A stretch of DNA of 38,857 bases from a virus (Duplodnaviria > Heunggongvirae > Uroviricota > Caudoviricetes), in IMG/VR virus record IMGVR_UViG_2636415906_000002. One strand, written 5' to 3'. Positions 894 through 29,898 of this stretch are shown here, one piece after another (within the stretch, counting starts at the first letter, position 1; every line of letters begins with the position of its first letter). A program made the translations under genes and the position numbers. A model generated the notes under the pieces. That model saw only the letters and a program-made list of their open reading frames with translations, did not search any database and was not told the DNA's origin.

Positions 894-2439
894 ATAGTTC
901 CCTCACTTTCATGCGAGTAATAATTTGTAGAAGTTTATCAAGATTATCAAATCTATAGAGATCTAATCGAATGTTGTTTGTTTCCGTCATGCACATTTTA
1001 TTATATTCGTTTTCAATCTTTGGTATGATATAAAAATCAAGAGGTGAAATATTTTGTGAATTCATTCGTATAACAATTGTTATGTCTGCTTTCTGTGAGT
1101 TATCAAACCGGACTTTCCATCTAAGTTTACCTGATTTCATATGTATGCATTTAGTAACAAGGACGGAAATTAAAAACTCATCATTGATGTAAAGCATTGG
1201 GGCATATTTATACTCGTCTATATGACAGTTACTTTTTAAAATTTCACCCTTAAAATCCTCAATTATCTCTGAGTAAAATGATCTTAGTGCTTCATTTATT
1301 TTGAGATAGCTGTAATCATGTTCTGGCTTATAACCAATCAAAGTATATGCTCTTAAAAGACCACCAAATCGGGTTCTATAAACAGAAGATGAAGGGCCTG
1401 TATCATCTTCATCAATGATAAAGCCTGATAGTTTTCCATTAGATTCTAATTTTTGTTTTAGTTTTTCTAATAGATCTTCATTAGTCAAATGAATGGATCG
1501 GAGCTGAATTATTTCTTGAGCTTTATTGTATTTTTTCTTTGAAATAATAGGTTTATATGCCTTGTCACATCTAACCCATTCATGTTTGGGGTTTTTTACA
1601 AGCCTACTTTTTAATTTAGATGAGGTTTTGTTATATATGTTGTTTCCAATATATTTTTCATTTGTCAAAATTTGATGTATTTTTGCACGAGTCCATAATG
1701 TTCCATTTTCTGCAGGTATGTTCTGTTCATTTAATCTCTCAGCAATAATGAATTCTGGGACGTTATTATCTATAAAGAGATCATATATTCTATTTACAAT
1801 TTTTATTTCATTTTTTGGTCCCGGAATTAATATTACCCTATCTGTTTGAATACTCTTTCTTTTGCGGAAACTCAATATTTCTTTAGCTATGCCATTTTCG
1901 TCTACTAAAAGACGTCTCAGCCCATAACCAGCCATACCGCCTTGATGATAACCAAGCTTTATTAAATTTACTTGCCCTATAAATACCTTTTCAGATAGAT
2001 TCCTGCTGTGATATGCAGCACTAGATCTTTTTATATTCAGTATAACAGAGGACTCTAAAGGGAAATCTTTAGTGGGTATAGGTTCGGAACAATATATAAG
2101 ATCTACACCATTTCTCTCAAATAGAAAGGAATAATATGCCGCTTCATCACTATTTTGAAAACGACCAAAACGGCTCACATCATAAAATAATACAGCCTGT
2201 ATATCTATTTTCTTTTGTTCTACATCGCTAAGTAACTGCTGCAAAGAATGCCTGCCTACGATACTGACTCCGCTCTTACCTGCATCATCGTAGGTATAAG
2301 CGATTTCCATATTGTTCTTTTCAGCATAATCTTTGATATATTCGGACTGATTATGTAAAGAATATTGCTGATGGTCGGTAGACATCCTCAAGTACTGCGC
2401 GACCCTAACTCTATGATTTTTGTCATTTTCGCTAGCCAT
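883..2439 (-). CDS. large serine recombinase (resolvase-type catalytic domain + recombinase domain)
   Basis: 518-aa ORF; N-terminal VAQYLRMSTDHQ catalytic-serine motif and DDAGKSG...R pattern of resolvase domain, then GYHQGGMAGYGLRR recombinase-domain signature; strongly AT-rich. Confidence 0.7.
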   Translation of the reverse strand: MASENDKNHRVRVAQYLRMSTDHQQYSLHNQSEYIKDYAEKNNMEIAYTYDDAGKSGVSIVGRHSLQQLLSDVEQKKIDIQAVLFYDVSRFGRFQNSDEAAYYSFLFERNGVDLIYCSEPIPTKDFPLESSVILNIKRSSAAYHSRNLSEKVFIGQVNLIKLGYHQGGMAGYGLRRLLVDENGIAKEILSFRKRKSIQTDRVILIPGPKNEIKIVNRIYDLFIDNNVPEFIIAERLNEQNIPAENGTLWTRAKIHQILTNEKYIGNNIYNKTSSKLKSRLVKNPKHEWVRCDKAYKPIISKKKYNKAQEIIQLRSIHLTNEDLLEKLKQKLESNGKLSGFIIDEDDTGPSSSVYRTRFGGLLRAYTLIGYKPEHDYSYLKINEALRSFYSEIIEDFKGEILKSNCHIDEYKYAPMLYINDEFLISVLVTKCIHMKSGKLRWKVRFDNSQKADITIVIRMNSQNISPLDFYIIPKIENEYNKMCMTETNNIRLDLYRFDNLDKLLQIITRMKVRELYAA

Positions 2440-2721: not shown

Positions 2722-3951
2722 TTATGCGGCAATAACTTTGCATTTTTGAGACGAAACATAGTCACTCCACCATTGCATGAGAACCACCCGTTCAGTGAGA
2801 TACTCTGCACGATTGTAGGCTGCAATTATTTCATCTTTCTTCGAGTGGGCAAGGGCGGCTTCTAAGACATCAGTCCTAAACTTGCCAGACTCCTCAGCAG
2901 CCGTTCTAGCAATGGATCGCATACCGTGAGCTACAAGCTCACCTCCGAAACCCATACGGATTATGGCCGCATTAGCTGTTTGTTCATGCATGTGATTGAG
3001 TGGAGCTTTGATACTGGGGAACACCCACTCTCTATGCCCGCTGATGACTTTCATTAAATCCAAAACTCGCAAAGCTTCTTTGCTCAGTGGAACTTTGTGA
3101 GGCTTCTTCATTTTCATAAACTCCGCCGGGATGTTCCACATGCCAGTTTCAATATCAATATCTGACCATCTTGTGCGAACAGCTTCACCTGGGCGAACCC
3201 ATGTGAGAAGTTGCCACTCAATCAGTAGCCTTGTTTCCAAACGGATAGAAGCATTGTTTAGAGCAACCAAGAAGCGAGGGAGTTCGGAAGGGGGTAATGC
3301 TGGCATATTCTGTTTTTTTGGCTTGCTGAACCGTTGCCCCAGGTTGTCTGCCGGGTTGAATTCTATGAGTTCTTCTGTTGCTGCATAGCGGAAAATTTCA
3401 TTCAGGCGGGATATGATGCGGCGAAGTGTTTCAAGGACACCTCGTTTTTCTATGGGTTCTAAATGCTGTTTAAGCATTTTAGGGCGAATCTCCTTAATTG
3501 GGGTATCACCCAATGTGGAAAAGATATTTCTCTCTAGGCTTCGCCAGATGTCGTTAGCATGATCTTGGGAGATGCCTGACGTTTTGACTTTCTCATCAAG
3601 CCACTTCTTGGCTACTGCTTGAAATGTATGTTCCGTGGCATCTTTCAGTGCATTGGCTTTTTGGTTGTTATGAACTTGGGGGTCTATACCATTTGTAAGC
3701 AACGACAAGTATTCATCACGTAAAGCTCGTGCCTTCGCAAGTGTAAGGTGAGGATAGGTTCCTAAGCTCACCTTAGTTCGCTTTTTGGTCACAGGCACTG
3801 CATATCTGAAATACCAATTTTTCTTCCCTCCCTTCGCCAGGGGAGCGATTCGCAACAGCAAACCATCGCCGTCAAAAAGGTTAACCTCTTTTTCGGCAGG
3901 TTTGGTGCTTTTGATTTCAGTGTCAGTGAGCTTCTTAGCGATTTTGGCCAT
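2722..3951 (-). CDS. tyrosine integrase, P4/CP4-57 IntA family
   Basis: ORF 2722..4032; probable true start ATG at 3951 giving MAKIAKKLTDTEIK...FDGDGLLLRI...WYFRY, the typical N-terminus of P4-family integrases; C-terminal catalytic region (GMRSIARTAAEESG...AYNRAEYL); sits directly downstream of an ssrA 3-prime-end copy and terminator. Confidence 0.85.
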   Translation of the reverse strand: MAKIAKKLTDTEIKSTKPAEKEVNLFDGDGLLLRIAPLAKGGKKNWYFRYAVPVTKKRTKVSLGTYPHLTLAKARALRDEYLSLLTNGIDPQVHNNQKANALKDATEHTFQAVAKKWLDEKVKTSGISQDHANDIWRSLERNIFSTLGDTPIKEIRPKMLKQHLEPIEKRGVLETLRRIISRLNEIFRYAATEELIEFNPADNLGQRFSKPKKQNMPALPPSELPRFLVALNNASIRLETRLLIEWQLLTWVRPGEAVRTRWSDIDIETGMWNIPAEFMKMKKPHKVPLSKEALRVLDLMKVISGHREWVFPSIKAPLNHMHEQTANAAIIRMGFGGELVAHGMRSIARTAAEESGKFRTDVLEAALAHSKKDEIIAAYNRAEYLTERVVLMQWWSDYVSSQKCKVIAA

Positions 3952-4049
3952 GTTTGGGACCCTCGATTTTAGGACCCATCTTCGTGGGTCCCATTCAGGG
4001 TGCCATAACTCGTAGTTCTCAGCAATTCTCACTAGACTACAATAGACGT

Positions 4050-4247: not shown

Positions 4248-5294
4248 TTAATGTTCTGTCGCCAATCTGTCGCCATTGTAGGTCAACGAAGGTTGAGCCT
4301 TCCCTTTGTTTGTTACAATTTCATCAAAGATAGCTGGATTATTATCTTTCAGTAATCTTGCTAGTATAATGATTTGCCCAGACGAGCCATCATCCTTGAA
4401 TGAAAGGAAATTATCGGTAATATCAAGAATATCAATGGTAAATTTGAAGTAGGTTTCAATTGTATCGCCAAGTTCAATGCTGGACATGAAGTTAGTAATC
4501 ATTTCATATCCATCAAAGTATAAAGTTGCATGTTCATTTAACTCCATGGGAGTTAGGCAAAGCATTCGATTAAGTTCGGATAAGTGTTTTTCTATTGAAT
4601 GAAGAGATTGCATTTGACGGATTAAAACTTCGGCAAACTGAGAGCCACGATTAGATGAATGTATCTTCTCTAGGTTTTTTAGTATATCAACCCAGTGATT
4701 ATTTACTTCACGTATGTATTCTTTATCTGTATTTTTAGGCCGTCCCTTCTCTGGTGAGCTATTTATGAAAATATATCTATATAGATGTATTGGGTAGTTT
4801 ATTTTATAACTTATCTCTTTAGTACCATAATGACGTTCGCGTTTAATGGTTTTGTTAGGTAAATTGGTGAAATAATCAGTAACGAACTTTAGATGGCTAT
4901 AGTAGCTATCAGATAGATTCTTTTGCTTGGTTTCCTCAATTTGTCGGTTTGTTTGAACTGTGCGGTGTATGTTTGCTACGACAGCAACAAATGGTATGGA
5001 CAAAGAAAGTAAGGCGATAGGAAGCTTGCTAATTGCAATGAAATTATTAAAGCCCTCACTATCAAATTGAGGGGAATGTCCAAGCCAGGAAAATATACCA
5101 AAGTATATCGCTGAAAATACAGGAATCCTAAGTGATTGTTTAAATAAGTATTGACTTGTTAATGGCCTTTCATCCATGTTAAAGCCTTTTTTTGATACGC
5201 ATAGATATAATTCAAGGCATATATATAAAAAATATATTATGATAAGTAAGTACGATATCCATGGGTATTGTGGGATATAGTTATTAACAAGCAC
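4248..5294 (-). CDS. membrane-anchored protein of unknown function (att-proximal prophage cargo)
   Basis: 348-codon ORF with GTG at 5294 overlapping int stop by 11 nt (alternative ATG at 5177 gives 309 aa); 2-3 N-terminal hydrophobic helices then about 240-aa soluble domain with no motif I recognise; markedly AT-rich. Confidence 0.55.
   Translation of the reverse strand: MLVNNYIPQYPWISYLLIIIYFLYICLELYLCVSKKGFNMDERPLTSQYLFKQSLRIPVFSAIYFGIFSWLGHSPQFDSEGFNNFIAISKLPIALLSLSIPFVAVVANIHRTVQTNRQIEETKQKNLSDSYYSHLKFVTDYFTNLPNKTIKRERHYGTKEISYKINYPIHLYRYIFINSSPEKGRPKNTDKEYIREVNNHWVDILKNLEKIHSSNRGSQFAEVLIRQMQSLHSIEKHLSELNRMLCLTPMELNEHATLYFDGYEMITNFMSSIELGDTIETYFKFTIDILDITDNFLSFKDDGSSGQIIILARLLKDNNPAIFDEIVTNKGKAQPSLTYNGDRLATEH
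4256..4276. repeat. tandem CTGTCGCCA 9-mers (candidate integrase arm-type sites, P-arm side of attP)
   Basis: CTGTCGCCA at 4256..4264 and 4267..4275; same 9-mer recurs at 37730..37738 and inverted at 37702..37710 on the other side of the att core. Confidence 0.3.
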
Positions 5295-6324
5295 TTTCTA
5301 ATTTTCTCCATCCAAGGTTAGCAAGAGGATTTTTGGTTACAGCATCTTCCAGATGGTCGGGAGCGAAGTGGGCGTAAATCATTGTCATTTTTATATCGAC
5401 ATGGCCCAGAATATCGCGCAGCACCAGTATGTTTCCGCCATTCATCATAAAGTGACTTGCAAATGTATGTCGTAATACGTGTGTGCATTGCCCTTCTGGT
5501 AGCTCGATACCAGCTCGTTTTACCGCACGTTCAAAAGCTTTCCTACAAGGTGTAAATAATTTTCCCCTATTCTTAGGCAGTTCTTCATATAAATCCTTTG
5601 AAATAGGCACTGTTCGGTTTTTCTTTCCTTTAGTCTTGGTATAAGTGATACGGTATTTTGATACCTGATGACTCTGTAGGTTTTCGGCTTCGCTCCAGCG
5701 TGCGCCGGTGGCCAAGCATATTTTTGCAATCATCAGCAGACTGGGGCTTTGAGAATCAGCACAGGCATCCAGCAGACGTTTAATTTCTTCCGGGGTCAGG
5801 AACGCCAATTCACCCTCAGCAATTTTAAATGTTGGCAGCCCAGCAAGCGGGTTGGGGGCTGACCAGTGGCCCAGCTTTTTCAGTGTACCAAAAACAGATG
5901 ATAGGTTGCGCTGTTCAAGATTTACCGTGCGGGGCTTAACGGGCGACATAAGCGTGCCATCTTCATTTCGTACTTCACCTTTTAACCGTGCTTCGCGGTA
6001 TTTCGTAAACTCACCAGCTGTCAGTTCTGAGGCGATGGGATCGCCTAGACCATTACAGATAATTCTAAGTTTCGCCATGAGGCGCTTGGGGTCTGCGAGT
6101 GTTTGACCATACAGGGAATACCACAGCTCAATTAATTCTGATAGATGTCGCCGATCTTCCTTTTCCCCTAGCCATGGTTTTTTGTTCACTTCTTCCATTG
6201 TGAAGCTTTCAAACGCAATGGCTTCGCCTTTGGTAGCAAATTGCTTACGCACGCGCTTACCATTGCGTCCATTGGGATAGCACTCACACAACCATTTTCC
6301 GTTCGGCTGTTTTCTGATGGTCAT
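5284..6324 (-). CDS. int: P2/186-type tyrosine integrase
   Basis: 346 aa; LATGARWSEAENL ... HVLRHTFASHF ... IKMTMIYAHF catalytic R / HxxR / Y pattern; positioned next to attL and downstream of repressor as in P2. Confidence 0.9.
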   Translation of the reverse strand: MTIRKQPNGKWLCECYPNGRNGKRVRKQFATKGEAIAFESFTMEEVNKKPWLGEKEDRRHLSELIELWYSLYGQTLADPKRLMAKLRIICNGLGDPIASELTAGEFTKYREARLKGEVRNEDGTLMSPVKPRTVNLEQRNLSSVFGTLKKLGHWSAPNPLAGLPTFKIAEGELAFLTPEEIKRLLDACADSQSPSLLMIAKICLATGARWSEAENLQSHQVSKYRITYTKTKGKKNRTVPISKDLYEELPKNRGKLFTPCRKAFERAVKRAGIELPEGQCTHVLRHTFASHFMMNGGNILVLRDILGHVDIKMTMIYAHFAPDHLEDAVTKNPLANLGWRKLESAC

Positions 6325-6327
6325 AAG

Positions 6328-6966
6328 TTAGAGGTTCTTGATTACTTTGACTGCACGTCCTACGACTTCCACATCATCTACAGAACATTCAAATGAAGTG
6401 TCATCTTGGTTAACTACTATTTTGTTTCCGGGTATGCGCGCAATTTTGACGATGCTTTTAACTCCGTCCATATCGACTAACCAGAAGCCATTACTGACTT
6501 GTTTAACAGACGTATCCACTACAAAGCTATCATTAGCTGTTTTAACAAATAAAGCGTTGGATGAGTCACCATCGAGCAGGCTGCTATCAAGAAGAATTTC
6601 ATCACTTGGCTGCAGTTCGCCGTTCTTCAGTTCAACACGTTTGATGCTAGGAGCAACGATCTTAGAAAGTGGTCTTACAGTGACGGGAGGTTCATTTTTG
6701 AGATTTGTTTCTTCGTTCTCACACGCATACATATCTCCTTGACCAGTAGCCAGCCATAGAAGGGAAGCTCCTGTTTCAAGGGCACATTGGATTACCCATT
6801 CGGCAGGAAAGCTATCCCTTAAGTATCTGTTAGCCATAGTGCTTTTTGATACTTCCAGATGTTCGCAGAGCTGCTGTCGTGAGCTGAAGTTGTAAGCCTT
6901 AATAAGCCTATTAATCGCATCGCGCCCACCACTATCATTCCCCGCCTTGATTAAACTCATAATCAA
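6328..6966 (-). CDS. cI: immunity repressor, 186 CI-like
   Basis: 212 aa; N-terminal HTH-like region (SSRQQLCEHLEVSKSTMANRYL) and C-terminal domain; divergent from apl/cII across an operator-rich intergenic region; cotranscribed with int. Confidence 0.75.
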   Translation of the reverse strand: MIMSLIKAGNDSGGRDAINRLIKAYNFSSRQQLCEHLEVSKSTMANRYLRDSFPAEWVIQCALETGASLLWLATGQGDMYACENEETNLKNEPPVTVRPLSKIVAPSIKRVELKNGELQPSDEILLDSSLLDGDSSNALFVKTANDSFVVDTSVKQVSNGFWLVDMDGVKSIVKIARIPGNKIVVNQDDTSFECSVDDVEVVGRAVKVIKNL

Positions 6967-7062
6967 ACCTCTTGACGCATATAAAAAGTGATCTTAATAT
7001 CCATTTATGGTTTGAAAAGCAAAACCAAACCACATAAAACAAGATAAAACGAAACCAAACTA
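6964..7062. promoter_or_regulatory. operator region: four CAAACC/GGTTTG half-site copies around the early promoter
   Basis: CAAACC at 6964, inverted TGGTTTG at 7008, CCAAACC at 7024 and CCAAAC at 7054, flanking the -35/-10 elements. Confidence 0.3.
6972..7000 (+). promoter_or_regulatory. candidate sigma70 early lytic promoter (pR-like): TTGACG - 17 nt - TAATAT
   Basis: -35 at 6972..6977, -10 at 6995..7000, directed toward apl/cII. Confidence 0.45.
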
Positions 7063-7076
7063 AGAGATACTGCACT

Positions 7077-7319
7077 ATGAGTACTGATATTTCAATTCGT
7101 GTACCAAAAGAGATGGCAACGCCTGCTGAGTTCGCGGAATGGGAAGGTATCTCCCGCGGCTCCGTGTATCAAAAAATTCACCATGGTCAGCTTGCTAAAT
7201 ACATGGTCAAGAAAGAAAAAAACAAAGGCCGCGTAAGCCTGCGTTATTTAATGTACAAAACCGATCAGGTCCGTGAATCCCTCGGTCATTCCAACTTCCG
7301 CGTCATTGTTGGTAAGTAA
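7077..7319 (+). CDS. Apl/Cox-type small DNA-binding excisionase / lysis-lysogeny regulator
   Basis: 80-aa first gene of the rightward early operon, divergent from cI; position and size as 186 Apl / P2 Cox. Confidence 0.65.
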   Translation: MSTDISIRVPKEMATPAEFAEWEGISRGSVYQKIHHGQLAKYMVKKEKNKGRVSLRYLMYKTDQVRESLGHSNFRVIVGK

Positions 7320-7351
7320 GTTCAATTATGAGAACTTTCTAAGGGGGTAGC

Positions 7352-7861
7352 ATGTTTGATTATAAGATTTCCAAACACCCGCATTTTGATGAAGCCTGTA
7401 GAGCTTTTGCACTTCGTCACAATATGGCGAAGCTGGCAGAACGTGCAGGAATGAATGTCCAGACTCTGCGAAACAAACTCAACCCAGATCAACCGCATCA
7501 GCTCAATGCGCCAGAAATCTGGCTGCTTACCGATCTGACTGAAGATTCAACGCTGATAGATGGTTTTCTGGCACAGATTCACTGCCTGCCATGTGTACCG
7601 ATTAATGAGGTAGCAAAAGAGAAACTGCCGCATTACGTCATGAGTGCAACCGCAGAGATCGGGCGTATTGCTGCAGGTGCGGTATCTGGCAATGTAAAAA
7701 CCAGTGCAGGTCGTCGTGATGCTATCAGCAGCATTAACTCTGTAACACGACTGATGGCGCTGGCTGCTGTTTCATTGCAGGCCCGTTTACAGGCTAACCC
7801 GGCGATGGCGAGTGCAGTTGATACCATGACTGGCCTTGGTGCTTCATTCGGTTTGCTGTGA
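7352..7861 (+). CDS. cII: CII-like lysogeny establishment regulator
   Basis: 169 aa, same length and position as 186 CII; RBS AAGGGGG before ATG. Confidence 0.7.
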   Translation: MFDYKISKHPHFDEACRAFALRHNMAKLAERAGMNVQTLRNKLNPDQPHQLNAPEIWLLTDLTEDSTLIDGFLAQIHCLPCVPINEVAKEKLPHYVMSATAEIGRIAAGAVSGNVKTSAGRRDAISSINSVTRLMALAAVSLQARLQANPAMASAVDTMTGLGASFGLL

Positions 7862-7868
7862 GGTGTTT

Positions 7869-8165
7869 ATGCTGACGAAAGAACCATCATTTGCATCGTT
7901 GCTGGTAAAACAAAGCCCGGCAATGCACTACGGTCACGGCTGGATCACGGGTGAGGATGGAAAACGCTGGCATCCATGTCATTCACAAGATGAATTGCTG
8001 TCTGAATTGACCACGAGGAAACGGAGAAAGTCCAAATGTATGGGGCAGAAAGTGAAGTGGTTTATCAGTTTCGTTACAGAGGGGAGAGTTATTCAGTACC
8101 TGAAGATGATTTGCTCTGTTGCTATCCGTCATTGTCGGGCGATGGCAGTTACTTTTTCACGTTAA
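7869..8165 (+). CDS. hypothetical early-operon protein
   Basis: ATG at 7869 with RBS GAGGTG; overlaps the next ORF in a different frame. Confidence 0.4.
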   Translation: MLTKEPSFASLLVKQSPAMHYGHGWITGEDGKRWHPCHSQDELLSELTTRKRRKSKCMGQKVKWFISFVTEGRVIQYLKMICSVAIRHCRAMAVTFSR

Positions 8166-8260
8166 AGGATGGGACGTTTTTACGGGGAGAGCAGGTTAAA
8201 GAGACGATACGAAAAAATGTATCTCCTCTTGAGCGTTACCGTAAGAACAAAGAACGATAG
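8036..8260 (+). CDS. hypothetical early-operon protein
   Basis: 74-aa ORF with RBS GGAGAAAG; overlaps 7869..8165 by 130 nt in another frame, so only one may be real. Confidence 0.3.
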   Translation: MYGAESEVVYQFRYRGESYSVPEDDLLCCYPSLSGDGSYFFTLKDGTFLRGEQVKETIRKNVSPLERYRKNKER

Positions 8261-8282
8261 CTGCGTTTGGGGGATATGAAGT

Positions 8283-8624
8283 ATGGCAATTAATGGCGCT
8301 GCAGCAACTGTTCCATTAAGCCCCGGTGAACGCCTGAATGGACTTAATCACATTGCGGAGTTAAGGGCGAAAGTTTTTGGCCTGAATATTGAGTCAGAGC
8401 TTGAGCGGTTTATTAAAGATATGCGTGATCCACGGGATATCAATAATGAACAAAATAAACGGGCACTGGCTGCCATATTCTTTATGGCAAAAATTCCAGC
8501 TGAACGTCATAGCATCAGCATTAATGAGCTGACCACTGACGAAAAGCGGGAGCTGATTAAAGCAATGAATCATTTTCGTGCAGTGGTGAGCTTATTTCCC
8601 AGACGGCTAACCATGCCGAATTAA
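8283..8624 (+). CDS. hypothetical early-operon protein
   Basis: 113-aa ORF, ATG start, co-directional in early operon. Confidence 0.5.
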   Translation: MAINGAAATVPLSPGERLNGLNHIAELRAKVFGLNIESELERFIKDMRDPRDINNEQNKRALAAIFFMAKIPAERHSISINELTTDEKRELIKAMNHFRAVVSLFPRRLTMPN

Positions 8625-8691
8625 CCAACTAATGAAATTAATGGCGTAAACCCGCCGGGCATCCCTTTATCTAAATTCAGGAGAATTGATT

Positions 8692-8925
8692 ATGCGTAAT
8701 ATTGAAACCATCACGACTAAAACCGGACCGGATGATGCAGGGCTTAATATTTTACTGACAGAGGCTCGTCTGGAAGAACGCCGGGCAAGGGCTGAAGCAA
8801 TGGCAGCTCGCCTTGATAGCCTGGCGTGTCATATCACATCCCGCCAACTAAACCACGTCGAAGCGGCAGAACTGCTGCGTGTGACTGCTGAAGCAATCCA
8901 GAACGAAGCGCAGGAGATCCACTGA
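8692..8925 (+). CDS. hypothetical early-operon protein
   Basis: ATG 8692 with RBS CAGGAGA; stop overlaps next start (TGATG). Confidence 0.5.
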   Translation: MRNIETITTKTGPDDAGLNILLTEARLEERRARAEAMAARLDSLACHITSRQLNHVEAAELLRVTAEAIQNEAQEIH

Positions 8926-9152
8926 TGGCTGATGCAATGGATCTCGTACAGCAGCGAGTTGAAGAAGAACGCCAACGTCATATCCGTGCTGCCCGTGCCA
9001 AAACGCCGGGCGTGTCCCGCGTGCTTTGCGTTGAGTGTGAAGCGCCAATTCCGCCAGCACGCCGCCGTGCCATTCCGGGTGTGCAGCTTTGCATTACCTG
9101 TCAGGAAATCGCAGAGCTGAAAGGCAAACATTACAACGGAGGTGCTGTATGA
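8925..9152 (+). CDS. TraR/DksA-family C4 zinc-finger protein
   Basis: 75 aa with CVECEAPIP...CITCQE four-cysteine motif; translationally coupled to dam (ATGA overlap). Confidence 0.65.
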   Translation: MADAMDLVQQRVEEERQRHIRAARAKTPGVSRVLCVECEAPIPPARRRAIPGVQLCITCQEIAELKGKHYNGGAV

Positions 9153-10006
9153 GCACCATCCTGAAATGGGCGGGAAATAAAACCGCCATTATGTCCGAAC
9201 TGAAAAAACACCTTCCTGCTGGCCCGCGACTGGTTGAACCTTTCGCGGGTTCCTGTGCTGTGATGATGGAGACGGATTACCCCAGCTATCTGGTTGCGGA
9301 TATTAATCCTGATTTAATCAACCTCTATAAAAAGGTTGCCTCTGATTGTGAATCGTTTATATCTCGCGCCAGAGTTTTATTTGAGATCGCAAACAGGGAG
9401 GTGGCTTATTACAACATAAGGCAGGAGTTTAATTACTCCACTGAAATTACTGATTTCATGAAAGCGGTATATTTCCTGTATCTCAATCGTCACGGTTACC
9501 GTGGTTTATGTCGCTATAACAAGAGCGGGCATTTCAACATTCCCTACGGTAATTATAAAAATCCGTATTTTCCTGAAAAAGAAATTCGCGCATTTGCAGA
9601 GAAAGCCCAGCGTGCAACGTTTATCTGCGCAAGCTTTGATGAAACGCTGGCGATGCTGCAGGTGGGGGATGTGGTGTATTGCGATCCGCCGTATGACGGT
9701 ACGTTTTCCGGCTATCACACTGATGGTTTCACTGAAGATGACCAGTATCACCTGGCATCCGTTCTTGAACATCGGTCATCAGAAGGACATCCGGTCATTG
9801 TTTCTAACAGTGATACATCCCTGATCCGTTCGCTGTATCGCAATTTTACTCACCACTACATCAAGGCAAAACGCAGCATCGGTGTAGCAGCTGGTGAGAG
9901 TAAATCTGCAACAGAAATCATCGCTGTTTCCGGGCCGCGCTGCTGGGTGGGATTTGATCCTTCGCGTGGCGTGGATAGTTCTGCCGTGTACGGAGTGCGT
10001 GCATGA
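9149..10006 (+). CDS. dam: DNA adenine methyltransferase (Dam / D12 class)
   Basis: [15 protein letters not shown] and DPPY motifs; RBS GGAGG; start at 9149 inside ORF 9089..10006. Confidence 0.85.
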
Positions 10007-12417
10007 GCCATGCTGATATGAACAACTGCAGCGGCTTTAACAAGGTCGCCGCAGCATTCTCATGGAACAGCCCGAAAAAGGCCATTAACCCTTATCTGGA
10101 CCCGGCGGAAGTTGCGCCGGTTTCTGCGCTTTCAAACCTGATCACTCTGTACGCTACCGATAACGAGCAGGAACAACTGCGCCGCGAGGCACTGAGTGAT
10201 CAGGTCTGGGAGCGTTATTTCTTTAATGAATCCCGTGATCCTGTCCAACGCGAAATGGAGCAGGATAAGCTCATTAGCCGGGCAAAGATGGCGCATGAGC
10301 AGCAGCGTTTTAATCCAGACATGGTCATTCTGGCTGACGTCAACGCCCAGCCTTCCCATATCAGCAAGCCGCTGATGCAACGTATTGAATATTTCAGCAG
10401 CCTGGGCAGGCCAAAGGCTTATTCCCGCTATTTGCGTGAGACGATTAAGCCATGTCTGGAACGACTGGAGCATGTACGCGACAGCCAGCTATCTGCATCT
10501 TTTCGTTTTATGGCAAGCCATGAAGGGCTGGACGGTCTGCTGATCCTGCCTGAAATGAGTCAGGATCAGGTGAAACGCCTGTCTACCCTTGTCGCTGCGC
10601 ATATGAGCATGTGTCTTGATGCCGCTTGTGGTGATTTGTACGCCTCCGATGATGTTAAGCCAGAAGAAATCCGCAAGACATGGGAAAAGGTGGCTGCAGA
10701 AACCCTGCGACTGGATGTCATACCGCCTGCGTTTGAGCAACTCCGCCGGAAAAGAAACCGCCGCAAACCTGTGCCTTATGAACTCATTCCGGGTTCGCTG
10801 GCGCGTATGCTGTGCGCCGACTGGTGGTATCGGAAATTATGGAAGATGCGTTGCGAATGGCGGGAAGAGCAGTTGCGTGCTGTCTGCCTGGTCAGCAAAA
10901 AAGCATCTCCCTATGTCAGCTATGAAGCCGTGATGCATAAACGTGAGCAGCGCCGTAAGTCGCTGGAGTTTTTCCGTTCTCATGAACTGGTGAACGAAGA
11001 CGGCGACACGCTGAACATGGAGGATGTGGTAAACGCCAGCAGCAGCAACCCGGCGCATCGCCGCAACGAGATGATGGCCTGTGTTAAAGGCCTGGAGCTT
11101 ATCGCGGAAATGCGTGGTGACTGCGCCGTTTTCTACACCATCACCTGTCCGTCACGTTTCCATTCCACGCTAAATAACGGCAGGCCAAACCCGACCTGGA
11201 CAAACGCGACGGTAAGACAAAGCAGCGATTATCTGGTCGGCATGTTTGCTGCATTTCGTAAGGCTATGCACAAAGCCGGGTTGCGCTGGTATGGCGTGCG
11301 GGTGGCTGAGCCGCATCATGACGGCACAGTTCACTGGCACCTGTTGTGTTTCATGCGCAAAAAAGACCGCCGCGCCATTACTGCATTGTTGCGTAAGTTT
11401 GCCATCCGAGAAGACCGCGAGGAGCTGGGCAATAACACGGGGCCACGCTTTAAGTCTGAGCTGATAAACCCGCGCAAAGGAACGCCGACAAGCTACATTG
11501 CGAAATATATCAGTAAGAATATTGACGGGCGTGGTCTGGCTGGCGAGATCAGTAAGGAAACGGGTAAATCCCTGCGTGATAACGCTGAATACGTTAATGC
11601 CTGGGCGTCTCTGCATCGTGTTCAGCAATTCCGCTTCTTTGGCATTCCGGGGCGTCAGGCTTACCGTGAACTGCGATTGCTGGCTGGTCAGGCGGCAAGG
11701 CAACAGGGTGACAAAAAAGCAGGTGCGCCGGTACTGGATAACCCGCGCCTTGATGCCATCCTGGCTGCTGCTGATGCTGGTTGTTTTGCCACCTACATCA
11801 TGAAGCAGGGCGGCGTACTGGTTCCCCGCAAATATCACCTCATCAGAACCGCTTATGAAATCAACGAAGAGCCAACCGCCTATGGCGATCACGGTATTCG
11901 TATTTATGGCATCTGGTCACCCATTGCAGAGGGCAAGATCTGCACTCATGCAGTGAAGTGGAAAATGGTTCGTAAGGCCGTTGACGTTCAGGAGGCGGCA
12001 GCCGACCAGGGCGCTTGCGCCCCTTGGACTCGTGGCAATAACTGTCCCCTTGCTGAAAATTTGAACCAACAGGAGAAAGATAAATCAGCTGATGGGGACC
12101 CCAGAACGGACATTACCAGCATGGATGACAAGGAGTTGCACGATTACCTGCACAGTATGAGCAAAAAAGAGCGCCGGGAACTGGCAGCAAGGTTATGCCT
12201 GGTGAAACCGAAACGGCGTAAAGACTACAAACAGCGAATTACAGACCATCAGCGACTGCAGCTCGTGTATGAGCTGAAGTCCAGAGGATTTGATGGCAGC
12301 GAGAAAGAGGTCGATTTACTCCTTCGCGGAGGCAGTATTCCGTCAGGAGCAGGCCTGCGTATCTTCTATCGGAACCAGCGTTTGCAGGAAGATGATCAGT
12401 GGCGGAACCTGTATTAA
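10003..12417 (+). CDS. A: replication initiation protein A (rolling-circle nickase, P2 gpA family)
   Basis: 804-aa protein in the P2 A position, translationally coupled to dam (ATGA overlap). Confidence 0.9.
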
Positions 12418-12571: not shown

Positions 12572-12760
12572 ATGCAGGACTATTTTTTGGAGTCTTTGAA
12601 GCTCCAGCGCATTGATTTTTTTCTTAAGCTTGTAGCGGCTAGTGAGTGTAGTGATGAAGAGAAGGGGCTGGCTCTGCAGTGGGTTTCTGAATTGACTGAT
12701 GAACTCATGGCAAAAATCAGAACCCACGAATACAACCGCTCAATGGATGTCATCAGCTGA
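12572..12760 (+). CDS. Tum-like antirepressor N-terminal segment (62 aa)
   Basis: RBS AGGAGGA; first gene downstream of the LexA box; overlaps the upstream extension of the DinI-like ORF in the +1 frame. Confidence 0.45.
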   Translation: MQDYFLESLKLQRIDFFLKLVAASECSDEEKGLALQWVSELTDELMAKIRTHEYNRSMDVIS

Positions 12761-12770
12761 GGTGACTTTT

Positions 12771-13004
12771 ATGCGCATTGAAATAATGATCGATAAAGAG
12801 CAGAAGATTAGCCAGTCTACCCTGGACGCCCTTGAATCCGAGCTTTACCGCAATCTGCGCCCCCTGTATCCCAAAACGGTAATTCGCATTCGCAAAGGTA
12901 GCTCTAACGGTGTGGAACTAACCGGACTGCAACTGGACGAAGAAAGAAAACAAGTGATGAAAATTATGCAGAAGGTGTGGGAAGACGACAGCTGGCTGCA
13001 TTAA
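12771..13004 (+). CDS. DinI-like protein (equivalent to the C-terminal half of a 186 Tum-type antirepressor)
   Basis: MRIEIMIDKEQKISQSTLDALESELYRNLRPLYPKTVIRIRKGSSNGVELTGLQLDEERKQVMKIMQKVWEDDSWLH resembles DinI; ATG 12771. Confidence 0.7.
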   Translation: MRIEIMIDKEQKISQSTLDALESELYRNLRPLYPKTVIRIRKGSSNGVELTGLQLDEERKQVMKIMQKVWEDDSWLH

Positions 13005-13138
13005 GAAACGTTGCTGGCGTCTGAACTTGCTTCTGGCGTCAGCAAGGTTGAACAACGAGCCCTTGCGAGGCGTTAGCTCTGTAGTGCATGTCTATGCCGC
13101 ATGAGATCGCATGATCGTTTGAGGATCGTTTTTGCTAA

Positions 13139-13164
13139 GGCCCGCCAGAACTGGCGGGCTTTTG
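13139..13164 (+). terminator. intrinsic terminator after the Tum-like module
   Basis: GCCCGCCAG-AA-CTGGCGGGC followed by TTTTG. Confidence 0.5.
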
Positions 13165-13208
13165 CGTAGATCATGCAGGTGCATGAAAACCACTACATAA
13201 AGCGGGCA

Positions 13209-13227: not shown

Positions 13228-13321
13228 CGCGCGCTGAGATATGAATTAGTAATAGTTGTTTTAATCTATCTTGTTAAGTAAATTAACGATCAACCCATGG
13301 TCATGTCTAGGGAATGATGAT

Positions 13322-15103
13322 ATGAATTTTGATGCAACTCCTTTAAATATTAAAAATATACTTTCTGTTAAACAGCGTTATGTGATTCCACGGAATCAAC
13401 GAGAATTTAGTTGGGAAAAGTTACAACTTGATGAATTGTGGCAAGACATAATAAGAAATATAAAATTAAATCCCAAAGGGGATGACTTTGAATTCAATGA
13501 GTACTTTATTGGTACAATTGTATTGTCTGGTGCTGACAGTGATAATGTTTTGGAGATTGTTGATGGTCAGCAGCGTTTCAGTGTTATTACAATTCTACTT
13601 TCTTTAATTTCTAGGTTTTTAAGAAAAAATGGGAAGGCCGAATTTGCTGATGATATTTTTAAAACATATATCGTAACCGCAAATCAGACGTTCAATAGAA
13701 ATTCTGTCAGTTCTAATGGCGACTCAGTAGTTGAGAAGCTTTCTAAAAATAGTGACAGGGCTTTTTTTAAACTAAAATTCCAAGATAGAGTTGAGCATAA
13801 AGCTGATGTGACTTGCGATGAAGATAAAAAGATTCAATATGCTGGGTTGTATTTAAGTAGAAAGCTAGGAAAGAAAGCATTATGTTCTTCTTTGTTGCGT
13901 GACGGTGCAGTAAAGTATAAAAAGGAAGATTACCTTTTTTGCTTGAATGCCGTTTACAATATGGTTACTAATTATCTTAAATTAGTAAGGATATCAGTAG
14001 GCAAGGAAGATGACGCGTATGATATTTTCGAGGTTTTGAATGCAAGGGGAATAAACTTAAGCTCCCTTGATCTGATTAAAAATAAAGTTTTCCAGAGTTG
14101 TATTGAAACATATCCAATAGATAAAGCCAAAGAGAAATGGGATTATATTACTAATTGCATCGAAGCTAGAGATAGTAACGCTACAATGGTTGATTATGTC
14201 AGGTGTTGGTGGCTTTCTAAGTTTAATTATATAGGTGAAGATCAACTATACCGTGCCTTTAAAAGAGAGATAAATGATGGTGTTTATGGATTAACTGCAA
14301 TTTCATTTTTGGATGAGTTGCATAAAGATGTTGATTTATATTGTAAGATAATTTCTCCAGATATTGATGATTGGCCTCAACAGGATCAGCGAGATATTTA
14401 CAATTCACTTAAAGCATTTGAAATATTCAATGTTTCAATCCCTCGCCCATTCATTTTGTCATTATTAAGAAAAAGAAGAGATAAATCTAGAAGTCTTTCG
14501 CAAAAAAGTTTAATAGAGTGTCTAATGTGTTTAGAGAGATTCCACTTTAGATTTAATGCTATTTGCCGATTAAGACCCTCTGGCATAGACGCCAAGTATT
14601 CAGTATTAGCAGTAAGCCTTGATAAAGCTACTAATAAACGTAGTATCGAATCAACCATTAGTGAAGCAATAGCATACTTTTCTGCGAAAAGTCCAAATGA
14701 AAAAGTATTCAATGAGGCATTTGTTAAAAATTTATTTTATACAAATAAAAAAGCCTCCCAGCGTAAGCTCATAATGTATATTTTTGAACGTTTTGAAAAG
14801 AAATTGCGAGGAACTAATGAGTTAAAATTAGACTTAGTTTCACTCGAGCATATTGGTGCACAAAGTAGTTTTGACTCAGAGGTTGTTGGATTAATGGGGA
14901 ATCTTCTTCCTCTTTGCTTTACTTTGAATGAATCATGTAAAAATGATAGCTTAAGTAAAAAAATAAACGAGTATAAGAAGTCAAACCTTAAGGTGGTTAA
15001 TGAGTTTATTGATGAGTATTCATCTAACGATGAGGAATGGAATGCCCAAAAAGTTCAGATTAGAACATTATCTATGTCAGCGAAGGCCTATAATATAATC
15101 TAA
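13322..15103 (+). CDS. DUF262/DUF1524 two-domain nuclease, GmrSD/BrxU-like type IV restriction-type defence protein
   Basis: 593 aa from ATG 13322; N-terminal DGQQR motif (13562..13576) typical of DUF262 ParB-like NTPase domain; C-terminal LEHIGAQ ... GNLLPL ... NESCKN His-Me finger-like motif (E509/H510 at 14846..14851); AT-rich; own terminators on both sides. Confidence 0.7.
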   Translation: MNFDATPLNIKNILSVKQRYVIPRNQREFSWEKLQLDELWQDIIRNIKLNPKGDDFEFNEYFIGTIVLSGADSDNVLEIVDGQQRFSVITILLSLISRFLRKNGKAEFADDIFKTYIVTANQTFNRNSVSSNGDSVVEKLSKNSDRAFFKLKFQDRVEHKADVTCDEDKKIQYAGLYLSRKLGKKALCSSLLRDGAVKYKKEDYLFCLNAVYNMVTNYLKLVRISVGKEDDAYDIFEVLNARGINLSSLDLIKNKVFQSCIETYPIDKAKEKWDYITNCIEARDSNATMVDYVRCWWLSKFNYIGEDQLYRAFKREINDGVYGLTAISFLDELHKDVDLYCKIISPDIDDWPQQDQRDIYNSLKAFEIFNVSIPRPFILSLLRKRRDKSRSLSQKSLIECLMCLERFHFRFNAICRLRPSGIDAKYSVLAVSLDKATNKRSIESTISEAIAYFSAKSPNEKVFNEAFVKNLFYTNKKASQRKLIMYIFERFEKKLRGTNELKLDLVSLEHIGAQSSFDSEVVGLMGNLLPLCFTLNESCKNDSLSKKINEYKKSNLKVVNEFIDEYSSNDEEWNAQKVQIRTLSMSAKAYNII

Positions 15104-15148: not shown

Positions 15149-16183
15149 TTAACAGTTTAAGGCATAAGTTTTAAAGTTAACTACTTTCTCACCAAGCCAG
15201 TGATTTAGTTCCTTTAGTCGTTTCTGCAATGGTATTAACTCATTACGAACAAAAACGAGACTGGCCTTCTCCACATCCCCAAACCCCCCAACATTATTCG
15301 GCAAAATTCCCATCATCTGCGGCGGTACGCGGTGTGCAGCCATCATGTCGTCCCGGCTCACGTTCTTGATGTTCAGAAATTCATCTTTCGCTGCGACTTC
15401 TGACAACGGGATGATCTGAAGCCCGTCCTTTTTGCCGTTAGGCGAGTACATAAACAGGTTGCGGAAGTTGCCAGGGCCTTTGGCGCTTTTCATCGCGTTG
15501 CGGAGGTTGTTCACATCTTCCTGGTTCTGCGCGGCGTCGGTCATATACATGATGAAGCCTGCATGACTGCCGTTAATGTAATACTTGCGGCGGAACAGCG
15601 TGGCAGACTCGTTGAGCAGGGCGGATGGAATAGCAGAAAGATAACCGGGCAGGCCGTAGATCTCCTGGTTGATGTCCGGTTCCATCAGATGAAAGATGCT
15701 GCCTTTCGTGAACTGATATGGCTGCGTGGTCATACCGTATTGCACAAACCAGTAGGTATCCAGGTCTAACCCGCGTCGGGTGTATTTTGCCAGGGCAGGT
15801 TCAAGGGCGATAACTTCACCGAAGCGGTTCGTGCGTTTCTCCAGGTAGGCGTTACCAAATACCAGATAGTCCTGCACAAAACGCGAAAAAGCCTGCTGGC
15901 TGAGCAGCGGATGAGGGATGTAGGTGCTGGTCAGAATGTTGCACTTTACTGCAATCGGGGAACTATGATGAACGGCAGCGCGGAAGGTGCGCGCCAGTCC
16001 GTCAAAGCTGACGGGCGGCTCATACCAGCGGTCCATCTGTACGCATTCCACATAATCCAGCAGTTCTCGGCGGTCCAGAACAGGAACGGGATCGCCGAAG
16101 CTGAATGCTTCGGCTGTAGTTTGACTTTTAAGCTGGATCTGTTTCGTCGCCGCAGCGCGGTTCTTCTTACTCTTTCCCATCAA
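15149..16183 (-). CDS. Q: portal protein
   Basis: 344 aa; P2 gpQ position and size, overlaps terminase stop. Confidence 0.9.
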   Translation of the reverse strand: MMGKSKKNRAAATKQIQLKSQTTAEAFSFGDPVPVLDRRELLDYVECVQMDRWYEPPVSFDGLARTFRAAVHHSSPIAVKCNILTSTYIPHPLLSQQAFSRFVQDYLVFGNAYLEKRTNRFGEVIALEPALAKYTRRGLDLDTYWFVQYGMTTQPYQFTKGSIFHLMEPDINQEIYGLPGYLSAIPSALLNESATLFRRKYYINGSHAGFIMYMTDAAQNQEDVNNLRNAMKSAKGPGNFRNLFMYSPNGKKDGLQIIPLSEVAAKDEFLNIKNVSRDDMMAAHRVPPQMMGILPNNVGGFGDVEKASLVFVRNELIPLQKRLKELNHWLGEKVVNFKTYALNC

Positions 16184-29304: not shown

Positions 29305-29331
29305 CTCCGGTTTTTATTCAGGGGGATGATC

Positions 29332-29898
29332 ATGCTTATTGGCTATGTACGCGTGTCAACAAATGACCAGAACACCGATTTGCAACGCAATGCACTGAAC
29401 TGTGCGGGATGTGAGCGGATTTTTGAGGATAAAATCAGTGGCACCAAGTCCGACAGACCGGGGCTGAAAAAGCTGCTCAGGACACTATCGGCAGGAGACA
29501 CGCTGGTTGTCTGGAAGCTGGACAGACTGGGGCGCAGTATGCGGCATCTTGTTACGCTGATAGAAGAGCTGCGCCAGCGTGGCGTGAATTTCCGAAGCCT
29601 GACTGACAGTATTGATACCAGCACCCCAATGGGCCGTTTCTTTTTTCATGTCATGGGTGCCCTGGCTGAAATGGAACGCGAACTGATAGTTGAACGTACC
29701 AGGGCGGGGCTGGCTGCAGCTCGTGCTAAAGGCAGAGTAGGTGGACGCCGTCCTAAGTTGACCAGCGAACAGTGGTCACAGATTGGGCGTTTACTCGAGG
29801 CCGGAGAATCAAGACAGCGTATTGCACTGATTTTTGATGTAGGCGTTTCTACCATTTATCGAAAATTTCCGGCAAATAAGAACAATAAATCTCCCTGA
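29332..29898 (+). CDS. DNA invertase, Gin/Cin/Pin/Hin-family serine recombinase
   Basis: MLIGYVRVSTNDQNTDLQRNAL...DTLVVWKLDRLGRS...MGRFFFHVMGALAEMERELIVERT - near-identical architecture to Gin/Hin from memory; catalytic Ser in VRVSTNDQ. Confidence 0.9.
   Translation: MLIGYVRVSTNDQNTDLQRNALNCAGCERIFEDKISGTKSDRPGLKKLLRTLSAGDTLVVWKLDRLGRSMRHLVTLIEELRQRGVNFRSLTDSIDTSTPMGRFFFHVMGALAEMERELIVERTRAGLAAARAKGRVGGRRPKLTSEQWSQIGRLLEAGESRQRIALIFDVGVSTIYRKFPANKNNKSP

Follow-up and report, generated by a model that had tools for sequence, protein, structure and literature searches.

The dam gene and its place in the early operon

The window analysed here is a stretch of 38,857 nucleotides carrying a P2-like E. 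coli prophage in which an adenine methyltransferase gene, dam, lies between a zinc-finger gene and the replication gene A. The features considered are the following.

6972..7000, plus strand: pR-like early lytic promoter TTGACG-N17-TAATAT, the only plus-strand sigma70-like site between cI and dam
8925..9152, plus strand: TraR/DksA-type C4 zinc-finger gene, 75 amino acids (PF01258 zf-dskA_traR, 4.4e-11; TIGR02419, 67 bits)
9138..9142, plus strand: Shine-Dalgarno (SD) sequence GGAGG for dam, 6 nt before its ATG and within the 3' end of the zinc-finger gene
9149..10006, plus strand: dam, orphan Dam-family (D12 class, alpha-type) N6-adenine DNA methyltransferase with putative GATC target (matches to PF02086, TIGR00571 and E. 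coli Dam)
9683..9694, plus strand: codons of catalytic motif IV, DPPY (residues 179-182)
9992..10006, plus strand: dam-A junction, with SD sequence GGAG at 9992-9995 (7 nt before the ATG of A) and ATGA at 10003-10006
10003..12417, plus strand: replication gene A, rolling-circle initiator/nickase (PF05840 Phage_GPA, E=2.1e-127)
10098..10133, plus strand: hairpin CCGGCG/CGCCGG followed by UUUCUGCGCUUUC, 96-131 nt into gene A, putative positional analogue of the terminator tM1 of phage 186

The dam reading frame runs from an ATG at 9149 to a TGA at 10004-10006 and codes for 285 amino acids. A longer frame with a TTG start at 9089 is a mechanical ORF call only, and the RefSeq annotation of an identical copy uses the ATG. 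The product matched PF02086 over the whole profile (1-253 of 253; E=3.5e-76, 256.7 bits, cut-off 22), the NCBIfam model TIGR00571 'dam' (323 bits, cut-off 114.85) and the E. coli Dam structures 2g1p/4gol (E=1.5e-73). Together with the DPPY motif, the two family matches confirm the original prediction of a D12-class m6A methyltransferase. The DPPY codons themselves carry a GATC site (GATCCG). Against the E. coli Dam equivalog NF008152 / PRK10904 the product scored 288 bits, under the cut-off of 441, and judging from its sequence it belongs to a paralogous phage clade distinct from the host dam gene. The gene of this prophage is actually an already known, ordinary annotated copy of a phage Dam. 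The identical RefSeq protein WP_043856316.1 is found in E. coli prophages as 'DNA adenine methylase', and dam is present, with the same annotation, in 1238 of 5426 complete E. coli genomes.

No restriction endonuclease gene adjoins dam here or in 38 related loci, i.e. the adjacent cognate endonuclease gene of DpnII/MboI-like type II restriction-modification systems is absent, and the best PADLOC model was 'orphan methyltransferase' (1.5e-111), as expected for the solitary enzyme that had been proposed. In this prophage and in 33 related loci it is flanked by the zinc-finger gene and gene A, the extra genes found in this slot being exo-like, orf84-like or small unknown ORFs. The same prophage also contains, some 3.3 kb from dam, a DUF262/GmrSD-like nuclease gene (13271-15103), whose product has both a GmrSD_N and a GmrSD_C domain and matches type IV methyl-directed models weakly. 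The two genes could then form a defence/self-immunity pair, or dam could be a restriction-modification remnant. However, the nuclease gene was found in 17 complete E. coli genomes versus 1238 with dam and in 0 of the 38 Dam-carrying loci of other species, and Salmonella phage RE-2010 carries an AIPR gene at the equivalent position. In addition, gene A, a dinI-like gene and a terminator lie between dam and the nuclease, and no locus has an endonuclease gene next to dam. The host chromosome is already ~99.9% GATC-methylated (PMC6602927), so that a nuclease directed to G6mATC would presumably be lethal to its own host with or without the phage Dam. Pairing is contradicted by these co-occurrence data and either origin is extremely improbable; the relevance to a type IV-like nuclease cargo once suggested for this methyltransferase was not supported.

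The stop codon of the zinc-finger gene (TGA, 9150-9152) lies within an ATGA (9149-9152) and overlaps the dam start by 4 nt, and the ATG of gene A (10003-10005) sits inside a second ATGA (10003-10006) overlapping the dam stop, so both overlaps were correctly anticipated. An NTGA overlap on both sides of dam was found in 27 of 33 intact related loci from various Enterobacterales, and this is not due to chance. The GGAGG/GGGGG-like motif at the SD position of dam is conserved across related loci. At the other end of the gene, the junction nucleotides double as codons for the conserved Dam C-terminal G/E-V-R-A; V283, R284 and A285 are conserved in the family and the context GAGGTGCGxGCATGA is kept in relatives. 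Since dam and A each have their own SD sequence, translational coupling may not be obligatory. The order of early genes is that of the early lytic operon of phage 186. The location proposed for dam, among replication functions with the zinc-finger gene before it and gene A after it, is supported, the operon being the early lytic (pR) one. The proposed translational coupling stands as far as the ATGA architecture goes, but it is not a property of Dam. In phages 186 and P2, which encode no Dam, the same slot between the DksA-like zinc-finger gene and gene A is occupied by unrelated proteins, orf84 (CP84, PAPS-reductase-like) and orf83 (DUF5405) respectively, with a 4-nt overlap from orf84 to A and a short one from orf83 to A. 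The overlaps are therefore generic to the operon slot and are not specific evidence about Dam.

According to the GenBank record of 186, translation of A needs orf84 to be translated to its end; our literature search on translational coupling of 186 orf84 gave no matches and this feature note is the sole source. Phage 186 also has an annotated terminator early in A, tM1, thought to end transcripts when A is untranslated, and we infer that the hairpin at 10098-10133 is its positional analogue. Its fold (-13.8 kcal/mol) is no better than that of shuffled sequences (z=-0.5), but position and form match tM1. It is retained in 41 sequence variants, among them a wholly different stem at the same place in two loci (L107 and L109). 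We keep it as a candidate on the basis of this positional and cross-locus conservation and not of folding energy.

All this might indicate that dam is a neutral passenger cassette, any translated ORF ending at the start of A being sufficient as a leader and the enzyme activity being irrelevant. The slot occupants differ among phages, always with 4-nt overlaps, the requirement for orf84 translation in 186 is in line with this idea, and dam has become a pseudogene in 2 of 38 loci. Nevertheless, catalytic and DNA-contact residues are invariant over 107 proteins down to 71% identity, dam is retained where an orf84-like gene intervenes before A (L016, L019 and L024), and the genome-wide GATC signature described below follows the presence of dam. 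We consider a passenger role very unlikely.

Recognition residues and target specificity

The protein is 47.3% identical over 258 residues to E. coli Dam (EcoDam; PDB 2g1p, 4gol, 4rtj) and belongs to the same fold family. Among the EcoDam residues with known roles in GATC contact (PMC4417163), K9, Y119, L122, R124, P134 and Y138 correspond to K6, Y117, L120, R122, P132 and Y136 of the phage protein, i.e. six of seven are identical, and the seventh, N120, is replaced by R118. The EcoDam-equivalent contact residues are invariant among 107 homologues (71-98% identity), and each of the four DPPY positions is kept in 104-106 of them. Motif I reads F32-A-G34-S-C36 rather than FxGxG, the last glycine being replaced by a cysteine that is invariant in the clade (G39C with respect to EcoDam). 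The remaining differences from EcoDam, besides N120R, are R137N (N/H in the clade) and a 5-residue deletion after DPPY.

These substitutions could reflect a specificity that is looser than, or different from, strict GATC recognition, as in a broad anti-restriction or anti-defence methylase similar to some phage orphan methylases. The clade-specific invariant replacement of the base-contacting N120 by R118, the nearby R137 to N/H change, the deletion after DPPY and the NF008152 score below its cut-off would all fit. However, the equivalents of R124, L122, P134, Y119, K9 and Y138 are all kept, and the deviating positions vary in the GATC-specific Dam of phage T2 as well. Actually, three of the positions that depart from EcoDam (G39C, N120R and the shorter loop after DPPY) do so in T2 Dam too, whose GenBank record describes an enzyme making N6-methyladenine at GATC. 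Motif I of T2 Dam is FCGGL, with Leu at the position of the phage Cys; as T2 Dam is annotated as a GATC methylase, a deviation at this position appears to be tolerated in an active relative. Furthermore, GATC is the sole tetramer that differs strongly between Dam-carrying and Dam-less relatives. A departure from GATC is therefore unlikely, and the conserved contact residues and the contrast in GATC avoidance support, in silico, GATC as the target. Our literature search on Fels-2/P2-like Dam enzymes did not find experimental (biochemical or methylome) work.

GATC sites in the genomes and at the early promoter

The number of GATC sites differs sharply among these phages. The whole genomes of P2 and 186 have 25 (O/E 0.20) and 14 (O/E 0.13), whereas RE-2010 has 116 (O/E 0.79) and the prophage studied here 112 (O/E 0.72). 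Over 250 loci the median GATC O/E was 0.77-0.80 in the Dam-carrying P2-like loci (n=97), versus 0.25 in the P2-type (n=77) and 0.34 in the 186-type (n=76) loci, a 3-4-fold depletion in the 153 Dam-less ones. Dam-carrying loci with a 186-type gene A still had values of 0.62-0.86. Among 136 tetramers GATC was the top outlier in the comparison of Dam-carrying and Dam-less loci (log2 ratio 1.43; the next, 0.48). The contrast rests on few clades and thus on few independent evolutionary events. Two Dam-less loci within the Dam-carrying clade (L126 and L130) still have high GATC, which is compatible with, but does not prove, a recent loss of dam. This comparison of GATC content among relatives is the new support provided here, and it favours both GATC as the target and a role of the enzyme in self-protection while the phage replicates lytically.

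We consider it quite probable that dam codes for a functional, solitary GATC-specific methyltransferase of a Felsduovirus-type (P2-like) prophage, driven by pR and protecting the replicating phage DNA. The cI start is 12 nt away from the promoter at 6972-7000 and an apl-like gene follows 77 nt after it, an arrangement that matches the annotated pR of 186. The scan found, at its threshold, no plus-strand sigma70-like site between pR and dam that could act as the gene's own promoter, and pR is presumed to be the sole promoter of the operon. The gene would be transcribed solely from this CI-repressed early lytic promoter, in an operon ending with gene A, and probably translated in series with its neighbours through the 4-nt ATGA overlaps, which would place the synthesis of Dam at the onset of rolling-circle replication. 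Host Dam is reportedly rate-limiting for high-copy DNA, and phage Dams have been regarded as anti-restriction functions (bioRxiv 10.1101/2020.06.22.160242). The phage enzyme would add to the limiting host activity, so that the fast-replicating phage DNA, with ~112 GATC sites, could become fully methylated and these sites harmless. In its absence, un- or hemimethylated GATC would be exposed to candidate selecting agents such as nicking by MutH/MutLS, methylation-sensitive GATC-cutting restriction in the next host, or binding by SeqA. The original prediction favoured self-protection or epigenetic control over a restriction-modification system, and protecting or managing its own DNA fits all the evidence, including the orphan status and the GATC contrast.

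A control of origin nicking by Dam is unsupported. The ori consensus of P2/186 was not found as such, and the ori-like sequence at ~12010-12047, picked by eye through the A protein alignment, has no GATC within ~70 bp. At pR, a GATC (6990-6993) lies 1 nt upstream of the -10 hexamer, and the same position is occupied in 39 of 43 unique pR-like promoter variants of Dam-encoding relatives, no other offset being found. As an observation, this conserved GATC may be new. It suggests a different main role for the enzyme, in which Dam would methylate the GATC at the edge of the -10 (and possibly others) and alter the activity of pR/pL, or the binding of CI, on genomes that have just been replicated; with dam being part of the pR operon, this would close a feedback loop. 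The exact placement is found in promoters that are otherwise quite diverse, since 17 representative pR contexts share less than 75% identity over 89 nt and the spacer varies outside the GATC. Among Dam-less 186-type loci, 0 of 27 have a GATC at this position (in 5 of the 27 it is shifted by 1 nt) and the pR of 186 has none. Moreover, according to a review, Dam methylation favours excision of the P2-like prophage SopE-phi, the target being unknown (PMC7380047). Yet GATC sites in a prophage are already methylated by the host Dam, which makes the need for a phage copy less than obvious. The pR GATC persists in the two clade members without Dam, and the association comes down to two or three clades. 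Methylation sensitivity of pR is a candidate property only, and, unlike the protective model, an epigenetic role leaves unexplained why GATC avoidance is relieved over the whole genome. We regard it as doubtful that regulation is the main function, although the two roles are not mutually exclusive. With similar caution, Dam and the GATC at 6990-6993 might possibly act as an epigenetic module in which full, hemi- or no methylation sets pR/pL activity or CI occupancy. If so, fresh, incoming and resident genomes would be read differently and the phage Dam would partly control this state independently of the limiting host enzyme, providing a methylation-sensitive switch of lysis/lysogeny or early-gene timing in a prophage family present in about one quarter of E. 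coli genomes.

The gene itself is a routine annotation and the value lies in the family comparison. It amounts to a natural experiment within one phage family, in which carriers of Dam tolerate GATC and the Dam-less P2 and 186 have lost ~70-85% of these sites. The comparison favours the long-held view that GATC sites left under-methylated are a liability for enterobacterial phages, a phage-borne Dam being the alternative to site avoidance. The gene is dispensable, since it is disrupted in 2 of 38 related loci (L043 and L044). There are practical aspects too, as a prophage-borne Dam does not show up in methylomes, can set off retron-type defences and affects how phage DNA behaves with restriction enzymes. 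The conserved GATC of the early promoter is a simple, testable handle on whether induction may be under epigenetic control in this very common family of prophages.

Relationship to known phage and host Dam enzymes

The closest relative is Salmonella phage RE-2010 (ELPhiS; Felsduovirus), with 97% nucleotide identity over 1.8 kb. It shares the order DUF5347, DUF2732, DksA-like zinc finger, methyltransferase and gene A, and its coordinates (4790..5017, 5014..5871 and 5868..8282) give identical 4-nt overlaps. Its gene is annotated as DNA (adenine) methyltransferase, and at this locus there is essentially no difference between both phages; they differ in the immunity region and in the cargo gene after dinI (AIPR in RE-2010). 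We also considered M.EcoMIV of strain EC958 (EC958_1101) as the same gene and rejected it, as two 50-kb stretches of that chromosome contained the end of a Mu-like prophage and no P2-like dam. M.EcoMIV is an ST131 prophage 'Dam homolog' reported as untranscribed in the lysogen (PMC4659465), which is not evidence for the P2-like clade.

Other solitary prophage-borne Dam homologues of E. coli, such as P1 Dmt and the Stx-phage enzymes M.EcoVT2Dam / M.EcoGV, have been studied experimentally but belong to other phage families and genomic contexts. The P1-like Dmt is ~36% identical to the protein described here. These homologues could not be distinguished from the host Dam in methylomes (PMC6602927), and the P1 Dam sets off retron-Sen2 through GATC methylation (bioRxiv 10.1101/2020.06.22.160242). 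The T-even Dam (T2/T4; PDB 1yfj, 1q0s) is likewise an orphan GATC methylase encoded by a phage and falls in the same Pfam family. It departs from EcoDam, as the protein described here does, both in motif I and at position N120, but it is only 21-22% identical, comes from virulent phages with hydroxymethyl-C DNA and lies outside any replication-initiator operon. EcoDam is, like the phage enzyme, an orphan methyltransferase. It lacks the 22-residue C-terminal tail of the phage protein, which overlaps the signals for the next gene, and, unlike EcoDam, the phage enzyme is carried by a phage and would be expressed only during lytic growth.

The methyltransferase gene and its prophage

The prophage in the window is P2-like, of the Felsduovirus type, and lies beside ssrA/smpB.

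Features of the prophage and its flank
6328-6960, minus strand, cI
6972-7000, plus strand, pR-like promoter
7077-7319, apl-like gene
7352-7861, cII
between cII and the DUF5347 gene in order, fil-like gene
8283-8624, DUF5347 gene
8686-8925, DUF2732 gene
8925-9152, zinc-finger gene
9149-10006, plus strand, dam
10003-12417, gene A
12572-12760, small ORF
about 12771-13004, dinI-like gene
about 13138-13165, rho-independent terminator ending the early operon
13271-15103, plus strand, DUF262/GmrSD-like cargo gene
15149-16183, minus strand, portal gene
37798-38160, tmRNA gene (ssrA)

The original prediction described an orphan Dam gene with a DPPY motif, joined by ATGA overlaps to a zinc-finger gene upstream and replication gene A downstream, and all of these elements are in place. 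The 285-aa ORF (9149-10006, plus strand) has its DPPY at residues 179-182. Its ATG (9149-9151) lies inside an ATGA whose TGA (9150-9152) is the stop of the upstream ORF (8925-9152), which codes for a 75-aa TraR/DksA C4 zinc-finger protein (PF01258, 4.4e-11; TIGR02419). Its own stop (TGA, 10004-10006) belongs to a second ATGA, whose ATG (10003) opens gene A, coding for the 804-aa replication protein A (PF05840, 2.1e-127). Shine-Dalgarno-type sequences are found 6 nt 5' of the dam ATG (GGAGG) and 7 nt 5' of the A ATG (GGAG), and the conserved C-terminal G/E-V-R-A of Dam overlaps the Shine-Dalgarno sequence and start codon of the following gene. A strong antisense sigma70-like match also lies within dam (9552-9579, minus strand, TTTTCA-16-TATAAT, 10/12), and may be due to chance, the region overall having 3 promoter-like sites against 9.7 in shuffled controls.

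The finding is thus real and was mostly rightly interpreted, but it concerns a well-annotated, very common gene that is already known. Over the 1.8 kb surrounding dam, Salmonella phage RE-2010 shows 97% identity, with matching gene order and overlaps (4790..5017, 5014..5871 and 5868..8282) and the gene annotated as methyltransferase. There are 58 matching phage records. Of 5426 complete E. coli genomes, 1238 (22.8%) have the gene, under the annotation 'DNA adenine methylase', and the protein cluster at 90% identity has more than 4000 member sequences.

Left of the prophage integrase there are a second, P4-type tyrosine integrase (2722-4032, minus strand) and a large serine recombinase (883-2439, minus strand), while the right flank (37798-38857, minus strand) contains the tmRNA gene and smpB, suggesting that mobile elements are stacked in a tandem array at ssrA. 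A prophage of strain FDAARGOS_1287 has an identical dam and a 99.9% identical DUF262 gene, with glaH as the left neighbour instead. Between both integrases, a 348-aa ORF (4248-5294, minus strand) gave no match in a Pfam search and a weak one (8e-5) to the PADLOC '2TM effector'; RE-2010 and FDAARGOS_1287 likewise have a hypothetical protein beside int at this position. A Gin/Cin-type DNA invertase (29326-29898, plus strand; Resolvase and HTH_7, E=2.5e-53) adjoins oppositely oriented tail-fibre and assembly ORFs, which implies an invertible host-range segment.

Enzyme specificity and GATC content

The dam product covers the profile of the D12 class N6-adenine methyltransferases end to end (PF02086, 3.5e-76) and scores 323 bits against TIGR00571 'dam' (cutoff 114.85). 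With the E. coli Dam equivalog NF008152 it reaches 288 bits, under the cutoff of 441; it is a Dam-family paralogue and not the host gene. The top PADLOC model was 'orphan methyltransferase', and the closest solved structures were those of E. coli Dam (EcoDam; 2g1p, 4gol and 4rtj, E ~1.5e-73), with DpnM and T4 Dam next. The protein aligns with EcoDam over 258 residues, of which 47.3% are identical. In EcoDam, the first base pair is read by K9 and Y138, the T:A pair is touched by L122 and P134, and the last G:C pair has R124 as its key contact, while Y119 intercalates (PMC4417163). All six are identical in the phage protein (K6, Y136, Y117, L120, P132 and R122). The departures are R118 for N120, N135 for R137, C36 for the final glycine of motif I, and five residues missing after DPPY. 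T2 Dam also departs there, with S in place of N120, L in place of G39 and a shorter loop after DPPY; its record states GATC methylation. Across 107 homologues (71-98% identity) from many Enterobacterales there is little or no variation at the contact and deviating positions, the clade-specific C36 and R118 among them, a pattern indicative of purifying selection on what would be an active enzyme.

One of two points of interest is the contrast in GATC avoidance within the family, which supports both specificity and role. The comparison was extended to 250 loci in three groups.

GATC content (O/E, observed/expected, Markov) of the prophage and its relatives
This prophage (4248-37700), Dam yes: 112 GATC, O/E 0.72
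RE-2010, Dam yes: 116 GATC, O/E 0.79
P2, Dam no: 25 GATC, O/E 0.20
186, Dam no: 14 GATC, O/E 0.13
Dam-encoding loci (n=97): median O/E 0.77-0.80, range 0.56-0.99
Dam-less P2-type loci (n=77): median O/E 0.25, range 0.10-0.49
Dam-less 186-type loci (n=76): median O/E 0.34, range 0.14-0.71

GATC is depleted 3-8-fold in the Dam-less P2, 186 and 153 relatives (O/E 0.13-0.34), against about 0.8, near expectation, in the Dam-encoding loci, a contrast that spans few independent clades. Dam-encoding loci with a 186-type A (61-73% identical to 186 A) still had O/E of 0.62-0.86 (phage part only), showing that the signal follows dam and not the replication or structural module. When the 136 strand-symmetrised tetramers were scanned between both sets, GATC was the lone strong outlier (log2 ratio 1.43; next 0.48). 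Several palindromic hexamers are also avoided to strongly differing degrees in the two sets (CAGCTG, O/E 0.80 vs 0.13; CCATGG, 0.80 vs 0.18), which hints at differing restriction histories unrelated to Dam. Two Dam-less loci from IMG/VR within the Dam-encoding clade (L126 and L130) are still GATC-rich, compatible with a recent loss of dam; in one Dam-less relative the zinc-finger gene directly abuts A and in the other there is only an orf84-like gene between them. Two of 38 loci (L043 and L044), prophages of two species, carry dam as a pseudogene with frameshifts or stops.

According to McClelland (1985) and Deschavanne and Radman (1991), enterobacterial phages reportedly counter-select GATC, under-methylated sites being attacked by MutHLS, and phages with their own Dam are said to escape; the contrast found here is the pattern that they predict. 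The agent selecting against GATC may be MutH, GATC-specific restriction or SeqA. For high-copy DNA the host Dam is limiting, and an anti-restriction function is ascribed to phage Dams (bioRxiv 10.1101/2020.06.22.160242), and E. coli prophages in general under-represent GATC (PMC4659465). From the GATC signature and these premises, we consider it quite likely that the dam product actively methylates GATC as a Dam enzyme, which would benefit the phage by keeping its DNA fully methylated both while it replicates and once it is packaged.

Expression, the promoter GATC and the cargo nuclease

The sole plus-strand sigma70-like site upstream of dam (TTGACG-N17-TAATAT, 6972-7000) is separated from the cI start by 12 nt and from the apl-like gene by 77 nt, the location of pR in 186. 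By homology with 186, dam would be repressed by CI in the lysogen and switched on together with the replication genes upon infection or induction.

This promoter contains a GATC (6990-6993) 1 nt 5' of the -10 hexamer. The pattern TTGACN-N17-TAnnnT, which does not demand GATC, was searched 250-520 nt 5' of cII and yielded 43 unique promoter-like sequences of Dam-encoding relatives, from 98 loci. In 39 of them GATC occupies spacer positions 13-16, 1 nt before the -10, and it is found at no other offset. In 17 representative contexts, picked by a pattern requiring GATC and thus containing it by construction, identity was below 75% over 89 nt, the operator-like repeats differed and the 12 spacer bases before GATC were poorly conserved (mean top-base frequency 0.53). 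RE-2010, whose immunity region differs, has the same layout. In contrast, none of 27 Dam-less 186-type loci has GATC there (five have it one base off), the pR of 186 has no GATC, and the GATC of P2 Pe is 5 nt 5' of the -10 and overlaps operator O1. Excision of the P2-like prophage SopE-phi is favoured by Dam methylation, through an unknown target (review, PMC7380047). The promoter GATC, the second point of interest and inexpensive to test, fits the epigenetic control that the original prediction offered beside self-protection, a role that we regard as possible but rather unlikely; the sequences are phylogenetically related.

The proposed relevance of Dam to coexistence with a type IV-like nuclease cargo found no support. 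GmrSD_N and GmrSD_C domains are present in the cargo protein, which matches the PADLOC candidate families HEC-06 and 'Orf5' better than the type IV model. Its gene is present in 17 of the 5426 E. coli genomes, against 1238 for dam, and in none of the 38 related Dam loci, and RE-2010 has an AIPR gene at its position. It lies beyond the terminator, between dinI and portal, at the position of the P2 tin/old hotspot. Besides, host chromosomal GATC is ~99.9% methylated (PMC6602927), so a G6mATC-directed nuclease would be intolerable for the host regardless. Just 5' of the cargo gene, four GATC (at 13105, 13113, 13124 and 13169) are found within 68 bp (13105-13172), flanking the terminator (~13138-13165); the same 150-nt segment has 2-4 GATC in a subset of related loci with any cargo (seven unique four-site variants).

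The accessory slot in P2 and 186

In 27 of the 33 intact loci with dam, which come from different species of Enterobacterales, NTGA overlaps flank dam on both sides independently of the neighbours: the gene can be preceded by the zinc-finger gene, an exonuclease-like gene or an unknown ORF, and followed by A or an orf84-like gene. Phage 186 has three non-essential genes between the DksA-like zinc-finger gene and A (exonuclease-like, DUF5405 and the PAPS-reductase-like orf84), every join being a 4-nt overlap, and in P2 the slot is occupied by orf83 (DUF5405), overlapping both neighbours. The accessory slot is thus variable and tightly coupled, with dam as one of its modular cassettes, and the coupling is a property of the slot and not of Dam. 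According to the 186 record, translation of the A protein 'appears' to need orf84 translated to its end, and a terminator, tM1, lies early in A and acts when A is untranslated. At the same relative position in the window, 96-131 nt inside A, we found a hairpin followed by a U-rich tract (10098-10133, plus strand). Its folding energy is unremarkable; it is retained in 41 sequence variants, among them those of one lineage (L107 and L109) in which an entirely different stem sequence occupies this position. This hairpin would be the positional analogue of 186 tM1.
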